Origin: Candidatus Aenigmatarchaeota archaeon
GTDB lineage: Archaea > Aenigmatarchaeota > Aenigmatarchaeia > QMZP01 > QMZT01
DNA: 64,000 nucleotides
Assembly (NCBI GenBank): GCA_041489155.1
Contig: JBGPQP010000004.1
Location: forward strand, 1 to 64,000
Direction: 5' to 3'
Shown: piece by piece, positions 36,727 through 39,821 of the stretch
Numbering within the stretch: the first letter of the stretch is position 1
Layout: every line of letters starts with the position of its first letter
Notes under the pieces: model-generated
The model's input: only the letters and a program-made list of their open reading frames with translations
Database searches by the model: none
Told to the model about the DNA's origin: nothing
Position numbers and translations under genes: made by a program

Positions 36727-37515
36727 ATGGTGATTTGTTTGAAAATCAAGGTCATCAGCAAGAAGGGAGAGAATTTCAGGTTTCTTCTGGAGGGGGCGAA
36801 TCCCGCCTTCGCAAATACGCTCAGAAGGATAATGATATCGGAAGTACCGAACATGACCATCGATTCTGTCGAATTCCAGGACAACACGTCAGCGCTGTTC
36901 GACGAAATAATCGCGCACAGGATGGGCATGATACCTTTGCAGTTCGATCCGGACAAGTTCAACGTCATGAAGGACTGCAAATGCGAGGGCAAAGGCTGCC
37001 CGTCATGCCAAGTTTTCTTCGCGCTGGAAAAGACAGGACCGGCGATGGTTTATTCATCCGACCTGAAATCATCGAACAAGAGCGTAAGGCCTACTTCACC
37101 GGATTTCCCGATAGTCAAGCTGCTCAAGGACCAGCACCTGAAGATGGAAGCGACCGCGAGGCTCGGAACCGGCAGGGAGCATGCCAAATTCCAGTCAGCC
37201 AACGTGGCTTACAATTATTTGCCTACCATAGAGGCTTCAAGCTCAGAGGATTTCAAAAGGGTCGTAAGCGCCTGCCCCAAGGGCGTGCTGGAAGTAAAGA
37301 ACAGGAAGCTTGTTCTGGTCGACCCCTACGCATGCAACGAATGCAAGATGTGCGAGGAAACGGACGAGGGGGTAAAGATGAAGGGGGATCCGACGAAATT
37401 CGTGTTCAAGGTCGAGAGCATCTCGGGCCTTGAGCCGGAGTACATAGTCGAGAGGGCCGTGCAGATTCTCGAGGAGAAGGCGAAGGACTTCAAGGAACAA
37501 CTGAAGGAAGTGTAG
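36727..37515 (+). CDS. rpoD: DNA-directed RNA polymerase subunit D (Rpo3) with Fe-S insert
   Basis: ANTLRR, NTSALFDEIIAHRMGMIPL, GREHAKF, CPKG...CNECKMC; may start at TTG 36739. Confidence 0.95.
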   Translation: MVICLKIKVISKKGENFRFLLEGANPAFANTLRRIMISEVPNMTIDSVEFQDNTSALFDEIIAHRMGMIPLQFDPDKFNVMKDCKCEGKGCPSCQVFFALEKTGPAMVYSSDLKSSNKSVRPTSPDFPIVKLLKDQHLKMEATARLGTGREHAKFQSANVAYNYLPTIEASSSEDFKRVVSACPKGVLEVKNRKLVLVDPYACNECKMCEETDEGVKMKGDPTKFVFKVESISGLEPEYIVERAVQILEEKAKDFKEQLKEV

Positions 37516-37516
37516 C

Positions 37517-37714
37517 ATGACGCTGAAGCTCATCGTCTCCTGGATTTTCGGAGGGGCGCTGATAGCAGCGGCCGCGTGGATTCTTGGCCATCTCGACGAG
37601 ACACTGGGCGTTTCGCCTGCATCGTACTGGACCGCGTTTTTCCTTGCCTTCGTGCTCATACTCATAGGCGGCCTAGCGTGGATAAGCGTCGCCACGGCGA
37701 CGTCGAAGCACTAA
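37517..37714 (+). CDS. Small two-TM membrane protein
   Basis: 65 aa with two hydrophobic helices, abutting rpoD. Confidence 0.7.
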   Translation: MTLKLIVSWIFGGALIAAAAWILGHLDETLGVSPASYWTAFFLAFVLILIGGLAWISVATATSKH

Positions 37715-37797
37715 CACGGGAATAAATTCTGAAAAAGCGGTCTGATTCTTGGAAACATTCGCAAGGAATAAAAAGGGGTTGCGACCAATAATAAAGC

Positions 37798-38016
37798 ATG
37801 TTGAACGAAAACGAGATGCAGATACTGGGAGTTTTCAGCCAGCGCCTCCTCATCAGAAGGGACGAGCTGAGAAGCGTCCTTGCTGAGAGCGGCGTCAACG
37901 ACGGCACGATGACGATAAACAGGCTCAGTAGCCTCGGATACCTGAAGTTCATCGAGGCCGTGGGCGCTCCGTGCTACACGATAACGCAAGAGGGGATCAG
38001 GGCACTTAAAAAATAA
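37798..38016 (+). CDS. Small winged-helix-like protein
   Basis: INRLSSLGYL...YTITQEG wHTH pattern. Confidence 0.65.
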   Translation: MLNENEMQILGVFSQRLLIRRDELRSVLAESGVNDGTMTINRLSSLGYLKFIEAVGAPCYTITQEGIRALKK

Positions 38017-38103
38017 GTTATAAGCCCCTTCTTTCTTATTATAAATTACTTAGCACAACGTAGATACGCTGATGCAGGTTGAACCTGCGTCTTTTGAGAC
38101 GTT

Positions 38104-38129
38104 AGCCCCGTGTTGTAGCGGTCAAGCAT
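38104..38129 (+). repeat. Duplicate of the tRNA-Gln 5' exon (direct repeat of 39060-39085, 24/26 identical)
   Basis: agccccgtgttgtagcggtcaagcat versus agccccgtggtgtagcggccaagcat. Confidence 0.92.
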
Positions 38130-38159
38130 AAATTTAAACATACAAATTCAACTATATAT

Positions 38160-39074
38160 ATGAGGGTAAAACTTTTAGATGGCAAACAAAGAGCATTAAT
38201 AGAGCAAGTAAAAAATAAAAATAATTTTAATTTTAAAGAACTTTCGACATTTCTACGCGTCAATGGAGCAGCATTAAGAGAATGGTATTATGAAAGATGT
38301 CTTTTACCTTACAATATTTTTAGAAAGTTAGATGAAGAAAAAAACTTCGAAAAATTTATAATGGAAATTAGAGAACAGAACTGGGGTCAAAGAGATGGGG
38401 GTAAAAAATCATATGGGAACACAAAGAAAATAAAAAAACCGCTTTTCGACGAAAGATTGGCAGAACTCGTGGGTATTTTATTAGGAGATGGCAACATCTA
38501 TTCGTATAGAAATGTGAAAAACGGTAAAGTAATATCGACGCATAGTATAAGAATTTGTGGTGATTCCAGAAATGATCACGAGTATGTAACGGAACATGTT
38601 TCAAATTTGTTACAAAATCTTTTTGAAATAAAAACTCGTTTGTACAAAAGTAAAAAAAGAAACGCAGTTTATGTAATAGCTGATGGAATTGAACTAGTGA
38701 AATTTTTCAATTCATTTGGCTTGAAACCCGGAAATAAGATAAAAAACAATCTTACGATTCCAGAATGGATATGGCAAGATCCAGTATTTTTGAAATCTTG
38801 CATACGTGGTTTATTTGATACGGATGGTTCAATCTATGAATTAAAACCGCATTGGCCGGGTTTGATTCAAATATCGTTCAGAAATTATAATAAACTCCTC
38901 CTGAAAGATGTAGAAAGAGCCTTGAAACAATTAGGTTTCATTACATCGAAAATACATGACAAAAAAATTTGCATAACGAAACAAAATGAAGTTGATAAAT
39001 TTTTTAAGGAGATAAAACCTAATAATCCTAAACACGTTAAGAAATATGAAAAAATCAGAAGCCCCGTGGTGTAG
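38160..39074 (+). CDS. Two-motif LAGLIDADG homing endonuclease (DOD/intein-like) with N-terminal HTH-like region
   Basis: LAELVGILLGDG and IRGLFDTDGS motifs; strongly AT-rich; last codons (SPVV*) are encoded by the tRNA-Gln 5' end. Confidence 0.92.
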   Translation: MRVKLLDGKQRALIEQVKNKNNFNFKELSTFLRVNGAALREWYYERCLLPYNIFRKLDEEKNFEKFIMEIREQNWGQRDGGKKSYGNTKKIKKPLFDERLAELVGILLGDGNIYSYRNVKNGKVISTHSIRICGDSRNDHEYVTEHVSNLLQNLFEIKTRLYKSKKRNAVYVIADGIELVKFFNSFGLKPGNKIKNNLTIPEWIWQDPVFLKSCIRGLFDTDGSIYELKPHWPGLIQISFRNYNKLLLKDVERALKQLGFITSKIHDKKICITKQNEVDKFFKEIKPNNPKHVKKYEKIRSPVV

Positions 39075-39272
39075 CGGCCAAGCATTTTTCTGTATTTTTG
39101 ATTGCAGAAAAATGGGCTAGGCATGCAGGGCTTTGGATTCACAAAGCTTCCAAAGCTTTGAGAACCCCCCACTAAGGGATTTCCGTGAACGCTTTGGCGG
39201 ACGCGGAAGCTCCTTCAGGGGTTCTGTGAAAGAAGAAACCCGGCGACGGCGGTTCGAATCCGCCCGGGGCTA
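39060..39272 (+). tRNA. tRNA-Gln(TTG) with two BHB introns: 39082-39120 (about 21/22) and 39137-39237 (37/38)
   Basis: AGCCCCG/CGGGGCT acceptor; BHB GGCC-AAG/GGCT-AGG and CTTT-GGA/GAAG-AAA; T arm GGCGG-TTCGAAT-CCGCC; one A28.G42 mismatch. Confidence 0.88.
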
Positions 39273-39283
39273 TCCTTTCTCAA

Positions 39284-39688
39284 TCAAATGTGATAAAAAG
39301 TGTAAGTTCCCCTCGTGTCCCTGCCCTGGCCGGAGACTGCGATGGTGATGGTCAGGGGATTGTTGGGCGGGGTTTTGCCCCAGTTGGAGCAGTTCAGGGC
39401 ATAGAGCATCTCTATAGAATACGTCCTGCCGTACTCCTCCTGGAAAGACGTCTTGAGGTCCTCGAGCCTGTTCTCGAAGCTGTCCTTGGTTTCGTTGCAG
39501 TAATAGGTCTCACGTATGGTCTGGTTGAGGCCGCTTAGTATGTTGTTGAAAATCCGGACGTCCATCGCCATGAAAGGCTCGGTGATGTCGACCTCGGAAT
39601 ACTGGAACAATGCCTGCTGGACGATGAATATCATGCCTACGAGGAAAACGATTGCGACAAGAAACAGCTGGCCCTTTTTCTTCCCCAT
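39284..39688 (-). CDS. Type IV pilin-like protein with class III signal peptide
   Basis: MGKKKG|QLFLVAIVFLVGMIFIV N-terminus. Confidence 0.75.
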   Translation of the reverse strand: MGKKKGQLFLVAIVFLVGMIFIVQQALFQYSEVDITEPFMAMDVRIFNNILSGLNQTIRETYYCNETKDSFENRLEDLKTSFQEEYGRTYSIEMLYALNCSNWGKTPPNNPLTITIAVSGQGRDTRGTYTFYHI

Positions 39689-39821
39689 GAAAATAATTTG
39701 CGCGGCTTAAATAAAAAAACGAAAATGAAAGGAACGAGATAAGACAGAGTGCGACGGAGGGGTGAGTCTCGCTATCGCCCCTGTTATTCCTGCCCCTTTC
39801 CCCTTCAAGCGTCGTCCGGGT

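Follow-up and report, generated by a model that had tools for sequence, protein, structure and literature searches.

The window analysed here is the whole 64,000-nucleotide stretch of contig JBGPQP010000004.1 from a Candidatus Aenigmatarchaeota archaeon, whose genome, the one carrying the examined locus, is labelled G000. Within it, a LAGLIDADG endonuclease gene lies at the 5' end of a tRNA-Gln(UUG) gene (Table 1). The gene is flanked by two copies of the tRNA-Gln 5' end, which form a direct repeat (38104-38129 and 39060-39085) with a spacing of 956 nt and 24/26 identity. The local-alignment score of this repeat, 42-44, compares with a maximum of 18-26 over 200-300 shuffles. The insert is also AT-rich, with a GC content of 28-35% over 38000-39100 against 47-58% in the flanks and about 50% across the genome. 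A preliminary description of the locus, made from the letters alone, had reported the repeat, the gene and its skewed composition; all of its coordinates are correct, and the repeat alignment, shuffles, GC values and a Pfam match confirm these observations.

Table 1. Features of the tRNA-Gln(UUG) locus, by position in the window.
Feature	Position	Strand	Basis
TATA-like box TTATTATAAATTA, presumed original tRNA-Gln promoter region	38036..38048	+	Sequence; same block upstream of tRNA-Gln in G001 and other relatives
Hairpin and T-run, original 5' leader	38074..38095	+	Conserved upstream of tRNA-Gln in relatives; weak sroD-like hairpin match
Upstream copy, read as a pseudo-exon: tRNA positions 1-25, with U10 and U20	38104..38129	+	Repeat alignment; sits at G001's tRNA start
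TATA-like box AAATTTAAAC, putative promoter, 21-30 nt before the ATG	38130..38139	+	A/T box at the equivalent spot after the pseudo-exon in homologs
LAGLIDADG homing endonuclease gene, 304 aa	38160..39074	+	Pfam, AlphaFold, Foldseek, PDB profile search
Functional 5' exon of tRNA-Gln(UUG), positions 1-21	39060..39081	+	G10 and GGCC agree with relatives' tRNA-Gln; the final 5 ORF codons overlap it
D-arm (21/22) bulge-helix-bulge mini-intron, 39 nt	39082..39120	+	Fold; position and motif recur in homologous cassettes
Exon 2, tRNA positions 22-37: D-stem 3' strand, anticodon stem 5' strand, anticodon UUG	39121..39136	+	Splicing reconstruction
Canonical 37/38 intron, 101 nt	39137..39237	+	Related introns at the equivalent place in relatives
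Exon 3, tRNA positions 38-73	39238..39272	+	ARAGORN, splicing reconstruction

An assembly artefact, a risk that the preliminary description had itself flagged, is unlikely, since Logan contigs from two studies (X1 and X2) bridge both copies together with their unique flanks and show zero differences. The contigs concerned are records 2 and 3 of X1, possibly the sample from which the genome came, and records 9 and 13 of X2. No empty-allele joint was seen in the DNA contigs of four sequencing runs.

The protein belongs to a well-defined enzyme family. Its match to Pfam LAGLIDADG_3 (PF14528) has an E-value of 2.7e-14 and 53.6 bits against a cut-off of 22.5. At the N terminus, residues 1-77 make up a helical domain, which precedes two LAGLIDADG domains with the helix motifs LLGDG (containing D110) and FDTDG (containing D222). 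Among 21 homologs, E102, G105, G109, D110, G111, R216, G217, D220 and G223 are invariant, while D222 is kept in at least 90%. We take D110 and D222 to be the catalytic aspartates by analogy to I-DmoI. An AlphaFold model (pLDDT 91.6) and Foldseek matches to PI-PfuI, I-Tsp061I and I-DmoI (E 1e-9 to 1e-8, probability 1.00) agree with the double alpha-beta-beta-alpha-beta-beta-alpha fold, and a PDB profile search also found I-DmoI (E 2e-5). Like I-DmoI and I-Tsp061I, the protein has a monomeric two-domain fold (Foldseek E ~1e-9, TM ~0.72-0.74 on target) and is associated with the host's splicing system. However, the ORFs of those two enzymes lie inside bulge-helix-bulge introns of rRNA genes, whereas the present ORF lies outside the mini-intron, upstream of a duplicated tRNA exon, and its protein has an extra N-terminal domain of about 77 residues. 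The closest homolog of the ORF is 53% identical; genome and metagenome scans gave no relative above this value, and thus no donor. Upstream of the short homologous ORFs at L004, L072 and L075 (L-numbers label homologous loci), no remnant of the N-terminal domain was found, and L073 was rejected as a truly short ORF since a contig end cuts it.

At the 3' end of the gene, the final codons AGC CCC GTG GTG TAG are tRNA positions 1-15, confirming the earlier observation that the end of the ORF and its stop are read from the tRNA. At the 5' end, the TATA-like box after the upstream copy is a putative promoter and may give rise to a leaderless or short-leader endonuclease mRNA. No conserved promoter for the downstream tRNA was found in the 3' end of the ORF, with A/T-rich words at about -40 to -26 present only in some loci (L003, L004 and L005).

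With introns allowed, ARAGORN places a tRNA at 39060-39272 but assigns the wrong type. Cutting out 39082-39120 (39 nt) and 39137-39237 (101 nt) yields a 73-nt tRNA-Gln(UUG) in the same program. An Rfam scan of 37500-39800 (E up to 10) returned chance-level matches and no tRNA; the Rfam tRNA model also misses other intron-laden tRNAs. The minimum-free-energy fold of the mini-intron region comprises a GGCC/GGCU 4-bp helix, an AAG bulge and a 12-bp intron helix, with the 3' splice site AG/G (the slash marking the cut) in a 2x3 internal loop, giving a slightly relaxed bulge-helix-bulge motif. Its central helix co-varies across homologous cassettes, with GGCC/GGCU in some and GGUC/GACU in others. 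The restored tRNA and this fold bear out the D-arm intron that had been proposed. A candidate tRNA splicing endonuclease is encoded in G000 by a 404-aa ORF on contig C7 with two PF01974 (tRNA_int_endo) matches. A search for RNase P RNA (RF00373) gave no match in this 89.65% complete genome and so says nothing firm on 5' processing.

The preliminary description had further noted that the acceptor pairs with the near donor and can also pair with the far one in the upstream copy. Both pairings can indeed be formed, at -23.1 kcal/mol for the near donor and -10.2 kcal/mol for the far donor GGUC-AA/G-CAU, which is 12.9 kcal/mol weaker and has an outer helix of just 3 bp. The upstream copy also carries U10, which stands opposite U25 and breaks the G10-U25 pair of the D-stem, as had been pointed out in favour of a free-standing element. 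Because of U10 and the far weaker pairing with the acceptor, we read the upstream copy as a dead pseudo-exon.

These results bear on a second model put forward at the outset, in which 38126-39120 is a single 995-nt ORF-bearing bulge-helix-bulge intron. The upstream copy would then supply the 5' exon, be it the true one or an alternative, and the downstream copy would be intronic. The far donor can form a 4-bp helix and bulge with the acceptor, and the leader hairpin and T-run are conserved in relatives, so the upstream copy occupies the place where the ancestral tRNA began, downstream of its promoter block. Archaeal rRNA introns also carry LAGLIDADG genes, as the PDB titles of I-DmoI and I-Tsp061I record. 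However, the broken D-stem pair and the weak far pairing speak against this model, and the exons flanking 38126-39120 probably do not together make a functional RNA. The upstream copies of relatives either lack the acceptor strand (11 partial copies) or do not fit the downstream half (L085), and the canonical copy is always the downstream one. The single-intron model is therefore very unlikely. Far-donor splicing that releases a circular ORF RNA was likewise considered and is unsupported, as pseudo-exons are kept equally in cassettes that have no mini-intron.

The word GCAT follows each of the two exon copies and also opens exon 2. Its reading as a 4-nt target-site duplication is no more than speculation: other mini-introns do not have the repeat, and the left-junction spacer of other members is unrelated. 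Similarly, the repeat does end 4 nt past the 5' splice site, as first described; this may in part be coincidence, given the unrelated 4-5 nt spacer that other members have there.

Comparison with related genomes, which the preliminary description had recommended, separates an occupied from an empty allele. In G001, a relative from the same genus, the same upstream gene and intergenic region (93% identity over 55 nt) lead directly into tRNA-Gln(UUG), which has the canonical intron only, with no ORF and no D-arm intron. Since all three are missing there, the ORF, the second 5' exon and the mini-intron represent one insertion. Judged by this alignment, 38126-39120 (equivalently 38130-39124) is an insertion of about 995 bases. 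The ORF is absent from 19 tRNA-Gln loci of relatives and from G000's own tRNA-Gln(CUG), and the flanks are syntenic with relatives up to the repeat. The site is thus occupied in G000 and empty in G001 and every other syntenic relative compared, a presence/absence polymorphism. The locus is a recent, nearly undecayed example of its kind, with an empty allele in the same genus.

The same layout recurs in homologous loci, which were also searched for as had been suggested. All 17 of the closest tRNA-Gln-linked genomic homologs end in or at the 5' end of a same-strand tRNA, and the same holds for 33/33 further metagenomic loci, of which a detector established 27 and inspection by eye the other 6. 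Across both sets, the linked tRNA is mostly tRNA-Gln. Of the 33 loci that could be assessed, at least 21 have an upstream pseudo-exon ending at tRNA position 21-22, which is full in 10 and partial in 11 and usually ends 34-39 nt before the ATG. Often these upstream copies are cut short or do not match the downstream tRNA, as at L085, where the D-stem and position 7 clash, while the downstream copy is canonical in all homologous loci compared. The motif GTACAG occurs in the pseudo-exons of 9/49 loci and is missing from the functional exons of those loci; two of the 49 have a hit in the functional-exon zone (that of L071 lies inside its mini-intron; the other is L101). As some pseudo-exons of relatives share this motif, the upstream copy may have been carried by the element, making it a homology arm as opposed to just the former resident exon.

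A mini-intron at 21/22 is present in 10 of the 17 genomic cassettes and in 18/38 in a wider count, for which three flags were corrected by tRNA length. Cassettes that have no mini-intron, about half of the homologs and L066 and L081 among them, retain full-length ORFs and both catalytic aspartates, indicating that protection by the mini-intron is not a general rule. In a quick tree, tRNA-Gln-linked ORFs from DPANN hosts with different labels come together in a single clade (SH-aLRT 92), in which the ORF of G000 falls with that of a genome from another family instead of that of its genus-mate G002.

An unlikely alternative is that the gene is an immobile or domesticated resident, perhaps encoding a DNA- or RNA-binding factor that acts on the tRNA locus, and that the repeat and mini-intron arose by unrelated local events. 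A sister clade linked to tRNA-Ser(GCU) offers a precedent, having lost the second catalytic aspartate and looking vertically inherited, and LAGLIDADG proteins can become maturases or regulators (PDB titles: bI3 maturase, WhiA). In G000, however, both catalytic aspartates are retained, the composition of the insert is foreign, and the insert is missing from all syntenic relatives. The ORF is furthermore associated with the mini-intron, which is found in 10/17 cassettes versus 1/20 ORF-less tRNA-Gln genes, although these loci are not independent of one another. The empty allele in G001 and the layout of the homologs instead support the first model of the preliminary description, a free-standing element that brings a replacement 5' exon and a small intron. 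We put the probability at about 0.72 that the locus is a selfish LAGLIDADG cassette inserted into the D-arm of the tRNA-Gln(UUG) gene of a tiny archaeon.

Other mobile elements share parts of this design. SSV- and pNOB8-type integrative elements of Archaea depend on an integrase and are many kilobases long. As at the present locus, a tRNA gene is their target, its tRNA is restored from a copy that the element carries, and a direct repeat stays behind; unlike them, the insert in G000 has no integrase. The closest published case is tRNA-Thr(GGU) of Caldiarchaeum subterraneum (type C), where, in the available sections of the report, an upstream 5' tRNA fragment (positions 1-27) is followed by a 1,868-bp insert whose 813-bp ORF lies directly before a complete tRNA on the same strand (Sugahara et al. 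2012, PMC3293823). A new intron at 24/25 lies a few bases before the end of the repeat, and an intron-less, insert-less allele exists within the same population. The authors attributed the case to a pNOB8-type integrase with an intron-bearing attP and described the product of the ORF just as a putative protein for DNA binding or recombination; the text available to us mentions neither LAGLIDADG nor homing (PMC3293823). As far as these sections go, the two loci share the upstream 5' fragment, the ORF before a complete tRNA, the new intron near the repeat end and the empty allele. They differ in that the sole ORF in G000 is a LAGLIDADG endonuclease that overlaps the tRNA, with a layout that is found in dozens of loci.

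Read in the same way, the locus would be the scar of a site-specific recombinase or integrative element, with the 26-nt repeat as an attL/attR pair left by an integrated plasmid or virus, an intron-bearing attP and the LAGLIDADG gene as cargo. The tRNA-part repeats around the insert and the new intron near the repeat end match those seen in Caldiarchaeum, to judge from the available text (PMC3293823). However, the only ORF of the 956-nt unit is the LAGLIDADG protein, which is neither a tyrosine nor a serine recombinase, and a family search gave no integrase match in it. Synteny with relatives extends right up to the repeat, and the ORF clade follows tRNA identity, making an integrative scar extremely unlikely.

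For the selfish cassette, parallels also exist outside Archaea. Fungal mitochondrial mORFs, which are mobile ORFs for endonucleases, carry a substitute gene end, for example in atp6 of Allomyces macrogynus and in atp6, atp9, cox2 and nad3 of Glomus, according to the parts available of the source (PMC3630166). As there, a free-standing endonuclease ORF (LAGLIDADG in Glomus atp6) comes with a replacement gene end, and the native end becomes an unused duplicate. The fungal mORFs replace the 3' (C-terminal) ends of protein genes in frame, whereas the cassette in G000 replaces a tRNA 5' end, is archaeal and delivers a bulge-helix-bulge intron. The cassette is, by analogy, an mORF with a substitute end; this likeness is architectural and does not imply common descent. 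In T-even phages, homing can be intron-less, collaborative or in trans, with SegB (T4 tRNA cluster) and mobE as examples and with one-sided illegitimate break repair, as the available portions of the source describe (PMC2988022). These enzymes likewise are free-standing and spread when they are co-converted with a resistant allele next to them; SegB works within a region of tRNA genes, and one-sided homology can yield new junctions. The phage enzymes differ from that of G000 in being GIY-YIG or HNH proteins, with no duplicated exon and no archaeal intron in the passages at hand. Full-text literature searches, whose coverage leaves out most subscription journals, found no papers on archaeal LAGLIDADG genes abutting tRNA 5' ends.

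The cassette comprises an A/T-rich box as putative promoter, the endonuclease gene, spare tRNA positions 1-21 and the 39-nt mini-intron. In the mechanism we propose, the downstream copy would be transcribed into the working tRNA, from which the cell's tRNA splicing endonuclease would remove both the mini-intron and the canonical intron; this copy is presumably the exon used in vivo. On insertion, the resident 5' exon would have turned into the pseudo-exon or recombined with it, and the pseudo-exon may serve as the left homology arm. Judging from the position of the junction, the enzyme would cut tRNA-Gln genes that have neither ORF nor mini-intron near positions 21-25, after which break repair would copy the occupied allele, with homology provided on one side by the pseudo-exon and the flank upstream of it and on the other by tRNA positions 22-76. 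In the occupied allele, the upstream cassette junction and the downstream mini-intron would interrupt the target, and this may protect it from cleavage.

A broader and rather doubtful idea is that LAGLIDADG cassettes are a general source of non-canonical bulge-helix-bulge introns and stray tRNA fragments, with the stop of the enzyme tied to tRNA processing. On this view, an intron-less tRNA gene would be the homing target and would receive a spare 5' exon and mini-intron from the cassette at the cut site. Later, the endonuclease gene might decay, or recombination between the exon copies might delete it. What remained would be an orphan intron exactly at the former cut site (compare the tRNA-Gln of G013) or a pseudo-exon. 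As the stop codon lies inside the tRNA, tRNA 5' maturation would strip the stop from the endonuclease mRNA, which could tie enzyme dosage to tRNA processing.

Debate since the 2000s on the origin of non-canonical archaeal tRNA introns and of split or fragmentary tRNA genes has produced the proposals of intron transposition, integrative elements and protection against integration. The present locus suggests one route by which archaeal tRNA genes gain introns and stray fragments: a single insertion brings a homing endonuclease gene, a replacement exon and a new intron to one tRNA position, in a design that recurs in dozens of DPANN loci. A single protein and two short DNA substrates would thus suffice for a direct test of endonuclease-driven intron gain, and a re-examination of the 2012 Caldiarchaeum case is suggested. 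The homologs also represent a set of natural enzymes that probably recognise D-arm sequences of tRNA genes.

The tRNA-Gln(UUG) gene of the small archaeon that holds the window (genome G000) contains a LAGLIDADG ORF lying between two copies of the tRNA 5' end. These copies form a direct repeat with 24/26 identity, a spacing of 956 nt and a score far above that of shuffled controls. The final five ORF codons (AGC CCC GTG GTG TAG) are tRNA positions 1-15, and the GC content of the ORF region is 28-35%, against 47-58% in the flanks and ~50% in the contigs of G000. The repeat, the ORF and the stop codon within the tRNA had all been reported in the preliminary description, and all were found. An assembly artefact, which that description named as a possible source of the repeat, is unlikely because Logan contigs from two studies bridge each copy and its unique flanks with zero differences (study X1, records 2 and 3; study X2, records 9 and 13); X1 is possibly the sample from which the window came. 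The locus is real.

Features of the tRNA-Gln(UUG) locus of G000 (window numbering)
Feature	Position	Size	Remarks
Hairpin	38074-38095		GCAGGTT-GA-AACCTGC with T-run, just 5' of upstream copy
Upstream repeat copy (pseudo-exon)	38104-38129	26 nt
Insertion	38126-39120	~995 nt	relative to empty alleles
LAGLIDADG ORF	38160-39074	304 codons	ATG start; Pfam LAGLIDADG_3, E 2.7e-14
Downstream repeat copy	39060-39085	26 nt
tRNA called by ARAGORN	39060-39272		introns permitted; wrongly typed
D-arm mini-intron	39082-39120	39 nt
Anticodon stem	39126-39130 with 39239-39243		CAGGG/CCCGG
Second intron	39137-39237	101 nt	canonical 37/38 position
Recurrent stretch in second intron	39180-39214	~35 nt	0 matches in Rfam search

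Removing both introns in silico gives a 73-nt RNA that ARAGORN types as tRNA-Gln(UUG). In the pre-tRNA fold, a GGCC/GGCU 4-bp helix is combined with an AA|G bulge and a 12-bp intron helix, while the 3' splice site AG|G lies within a small internal loop, giving a slightly relaxed bulge-helix-bulge (BHB) motif. The non-canonical D-arm intron proposed earlier is thus borne out. Of the two possible splice donors named there, the near one gives a pairing energy of -23.1 kcal/mol with the acceptor strand; the far one, which would excise the ORF within a 995-nt intron, also pairs, but only at -10.2 kcal/mol and with an outer helix of just 3 bp. The downstream copy has G10 and GGCC, as in relatives, while the upstream copy has U20 and, as previously noted, U10, which breaks the G10-U25 pair. 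The downstream exon is therefore probably the one used in vivo.

The splicing endonuclease of G000 is a single 404-aa ORF with two matches to the catalytic domain tRNA_int_endo. Across the whole genome, ARAGORN reported just 30 tRNAs, several of them mis-typed and around two thirds with introns of 25-177 nt. A search for RNase P RNA (RF00373) gave 0 matches in this genome (1.13 Mb, 39 contigs, 89.65% complete). The A28-G42 mismatch in the tRNA-Gln(UUG) anticodon stem is shared with G001, a genome of the same genus (L025), and the recurrent intron stretch is found at 81-94% identity on other contigs of several relatives (G009, G013, G023, G026 and G038).

Comparison of the locus between relatives, as suggested in the preliminary description, revealed empty alleles. 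In G001, a tRNA-Gln(UUG) with only its canonical intron, and with neither the ORF nor the D-arm intron, directly follows an upstream gene and intergenic block shared with G000 (93% over 55 nt). The 19 listed ORF-less tRNA-Gln loci of relatives are further empty alleles, and the upstream gene is common to many; one of them, in G028, has a D-loop intron at a different spot. The tRNA-Gln(CUG) of G000 (contig 5) is likewise empty. Compared with these alleles, G000 has a single insertion, in which a second 5' exon and the mini-intron accompany the ORF. The upstream copy occupies the site of the G001 tRNA start; a TATA-like block shared with G001 and a leader hairpin conserved in relatives precede it. 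Comparable hairpins lie directly 5' of tRNA-Gln in many relatives; for the one in the window, two roles are conceivable: a conserved structure within the 5' leader, or a terminator for the 72-aa gene that lies upstream. In G013 (L041), another of the 19, the syntenic tRNA-Gln has a 34-nt BHB intron at 21/22 with no ORF or pseudo-exon, which may be the state expected after cassette loss, or an independent intron.

Similar ORFs were found across the clade. In 41 genomes of the same order, 45 matches were listed and 41 places examined, leaving out three short matches and the second stretch of one intein ORF. Two places are intein-like (ORFs >1000 aa). Of the 39 other ORFs, 23 end in or adjoin a same-strand tRNA 5' end (19 by an acceptor/T-arm detector, 4 by eye), eight reach into the 3' end of a tRNA on the other strand, three are located in LSU rRNA and five have no tRNA or LSU rRNA neighbour of these kinds. 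The opposite-strand loci (L008, L019, L043, L045, L047, L050, L053 and L057), where the ORF enters the T-arm/acceptor part and TGA often comes from the reversed T-loop, are a mirror arrangement at tRNA 3' ends. A public genome scan added 15 loci, 13 at tRNA-Gln, one at another tRNA and one an unusable fragment, with ORF homologs on contigs titled Nano-, Pace- and Woesearchaeota. A metagenome scan yielded 46 loci (ten duplicates, three unusable, 33 new), and all 33 new ORFs end at a same-strand tRNA, mostly tRNA-Gln (27 by detector, 6 by eye). At L101 and L105, the ORF reads through a whole intron-less tRNA-Gln and stops only past its 3' end. At L064, L071 and L072, a second tRNA 3'-end copy (…CCTGG(C/T)GGGGCTA) lies 60-190 nt downstream of the complete tRNA-Gln, which suggests a further small 3'-end insertion.

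A quick tree places the 17 tRNA-Gln-linked ORFs in a single clade (SH-aLRT 92) that covers hosts with different labels. Within it, the G000 ORF clusters with one from a different family and apart from the ORF of its genus-mate G002, whose location is tRNA-Gln(CUG).

The upstream tRNA fragment, which the preliminary description proposed to look for beside ORFs of this kind, is also widespread. By an automatic criterion it is present in 21 of 33 assessable loci (10 full-length, at 20-22 nt, and 11 partial), with three more seen by eye. It ends at tRNA position 21-22 (…GGYCAA), usually 34-39 nt 5' of the ATG. Next come a spacer of 4-5 nt and an AAATTTATA-like A/T box; the order in G000 is identical, with GCAT where the spacer would be. 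Many partial copies lack the acceptor strand, and several full copies are incompatible with the downstream tRNA (e.g. L085), so such copies are not exons. The word GTACAG is common to the pseudo-exons of 9/49 loci and occurs in the functional-exon zone of 2/49 (L071, within the mini-intron, and L101, where placement is ambiguous). This distribution suggests that pseudo-exons are passed on as part of the element, in which they serve as homology arms, and that not every one of them is left over from the resident gene.

Mini-introns at 21/22 occur in 10/17 genome-derived cassettes and, by a wider script count, in 18/38 loci (the script flagged 19; tRNA length led to the inclusion of L001 and the exclusion of L093 and L110), against one of 20 ORF-less tRNA-Gln genes, a contrast between related loci that is descriptive only. 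Eight tRNA-Gln mini-introns (seven cassette-borne plus the ORF-less one of G013) and one tRNA-Asp cassette share a strict motif: a 4-bp helix, an AA|N bulge (UA|A in tRNA-Asp) and an A(A/G/U)|(G/A) bulge. The helix co-varies, with GGCC/GGCU or GGCC/GGUU versus GGUC/GACU or GGUC/GACC. Three short ORFs (L004, L072 and L075; 202-228 aa) no longer have the N-terminal domain or the pseudo-exon, a loss that fits decay following fixation.

In the AlphaFold model of the G000 protein (pLDDT 91.6), residues 1-77 form a helical domain at the N-terminus and residues 78-87 a disordered linker, with two alpha/beta domains in addition. Foldseek matched it to PI-PfuI, I-Tsp061I and I-DmoI (E 1e-9 to 1e-8), and a profile search of PDB sequences matched I-DmoI at E 2e-5. 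In a 21-homolog alignment, E102, G105, G109, D110, G111, R216, G217, D220 and G223 are invariant and D222 is retained in at least 90%; these residues make up the two LAGLIDADG motifs and their acidic residues, which we take to be catalytic by analogy to I-DmoI. A second LAGLIDADG ORF in G000 (L002; contig 7, 19524-20117, + strand, 209 aa), outside the window, ends in the 5' end of a tRNA-Ser(GCU) with its own D-arm intron. Its clade (8 members within the family, SH-aLRT 100) looks vertically inherited, carries R or S where the second catalytic Asp would be, and conserves an upstream block of TATA, TTAAGGCGC(AG) (tRNA-Ser D-arm sequence), TATA and ATG. This ORF may be a degenerate or domesticated relative.

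These features suggest a route of spread. The enzyme would probably cleave near positions 21-25 of intron-less tRNA-Gln genes, with an occupied allele then serving as template for repair. The left end would pair with the pseudo-exon, plus the upstream flank within a population, and the right end with tRNA positions 22-76; the promoter box, ORF, functional exon 1-21 and, where present, mini-intron would be copied between them. The cassette brings along the very exon that it cuts off from the remainder of the gene, so tRNA function would be preserved. The presumed target in G000 would be split twice, by the cassette junction and by the mini-intron. Such a route corresponds to model 1 of the preliminary description. 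As half of the relatives have no mini-intron, some other form of protection must act in them, presumably sequence differences or inactive enzymes.

Related strategies have been described, the nearest of them in print at the tRNA-Thr(GGU) locus of Caldiarchaeum. It has a 5' fragment (1-27), a 1,868-bp insert whose 813-bp ORF lies just 5' of the tRNA, a gained intron at 24/25 and an empty allele within the population; it was attributed to a pNOB8-type integrase, and LAGLIDADG is not named in the text (PMC3293823). Fungal mitochondrial mORFs bring a substitute C-terminal gene end (PMC3630166) and are the mirror image, in protein genes, of the G000 arrangement. In phage T4, intron-less and collaborative homing, SegB in a tRNA region and one-sided illegitimate break repair are described (PMC2988022). 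A full-text literature search, with most subscription journals outside its scope, did not find archaeal LAGLIDADG genes abutting tRNA 5' ends described.

In summary, the G000 cassette is recent and has hardly decayed. It belongs to a LAGLIDADG family widespread in DPANN, whose cassettes, judging from sequence comparison, replace the tRNA-Gln 5' exon and often deliver a D-arm intron. We rate it as akin to known kinds of element, namely homing-endonuclease mORFs and tRNA-targeting elements that rebuild their target. The locus renders endonuclease-driven tRNA intron gain testable.
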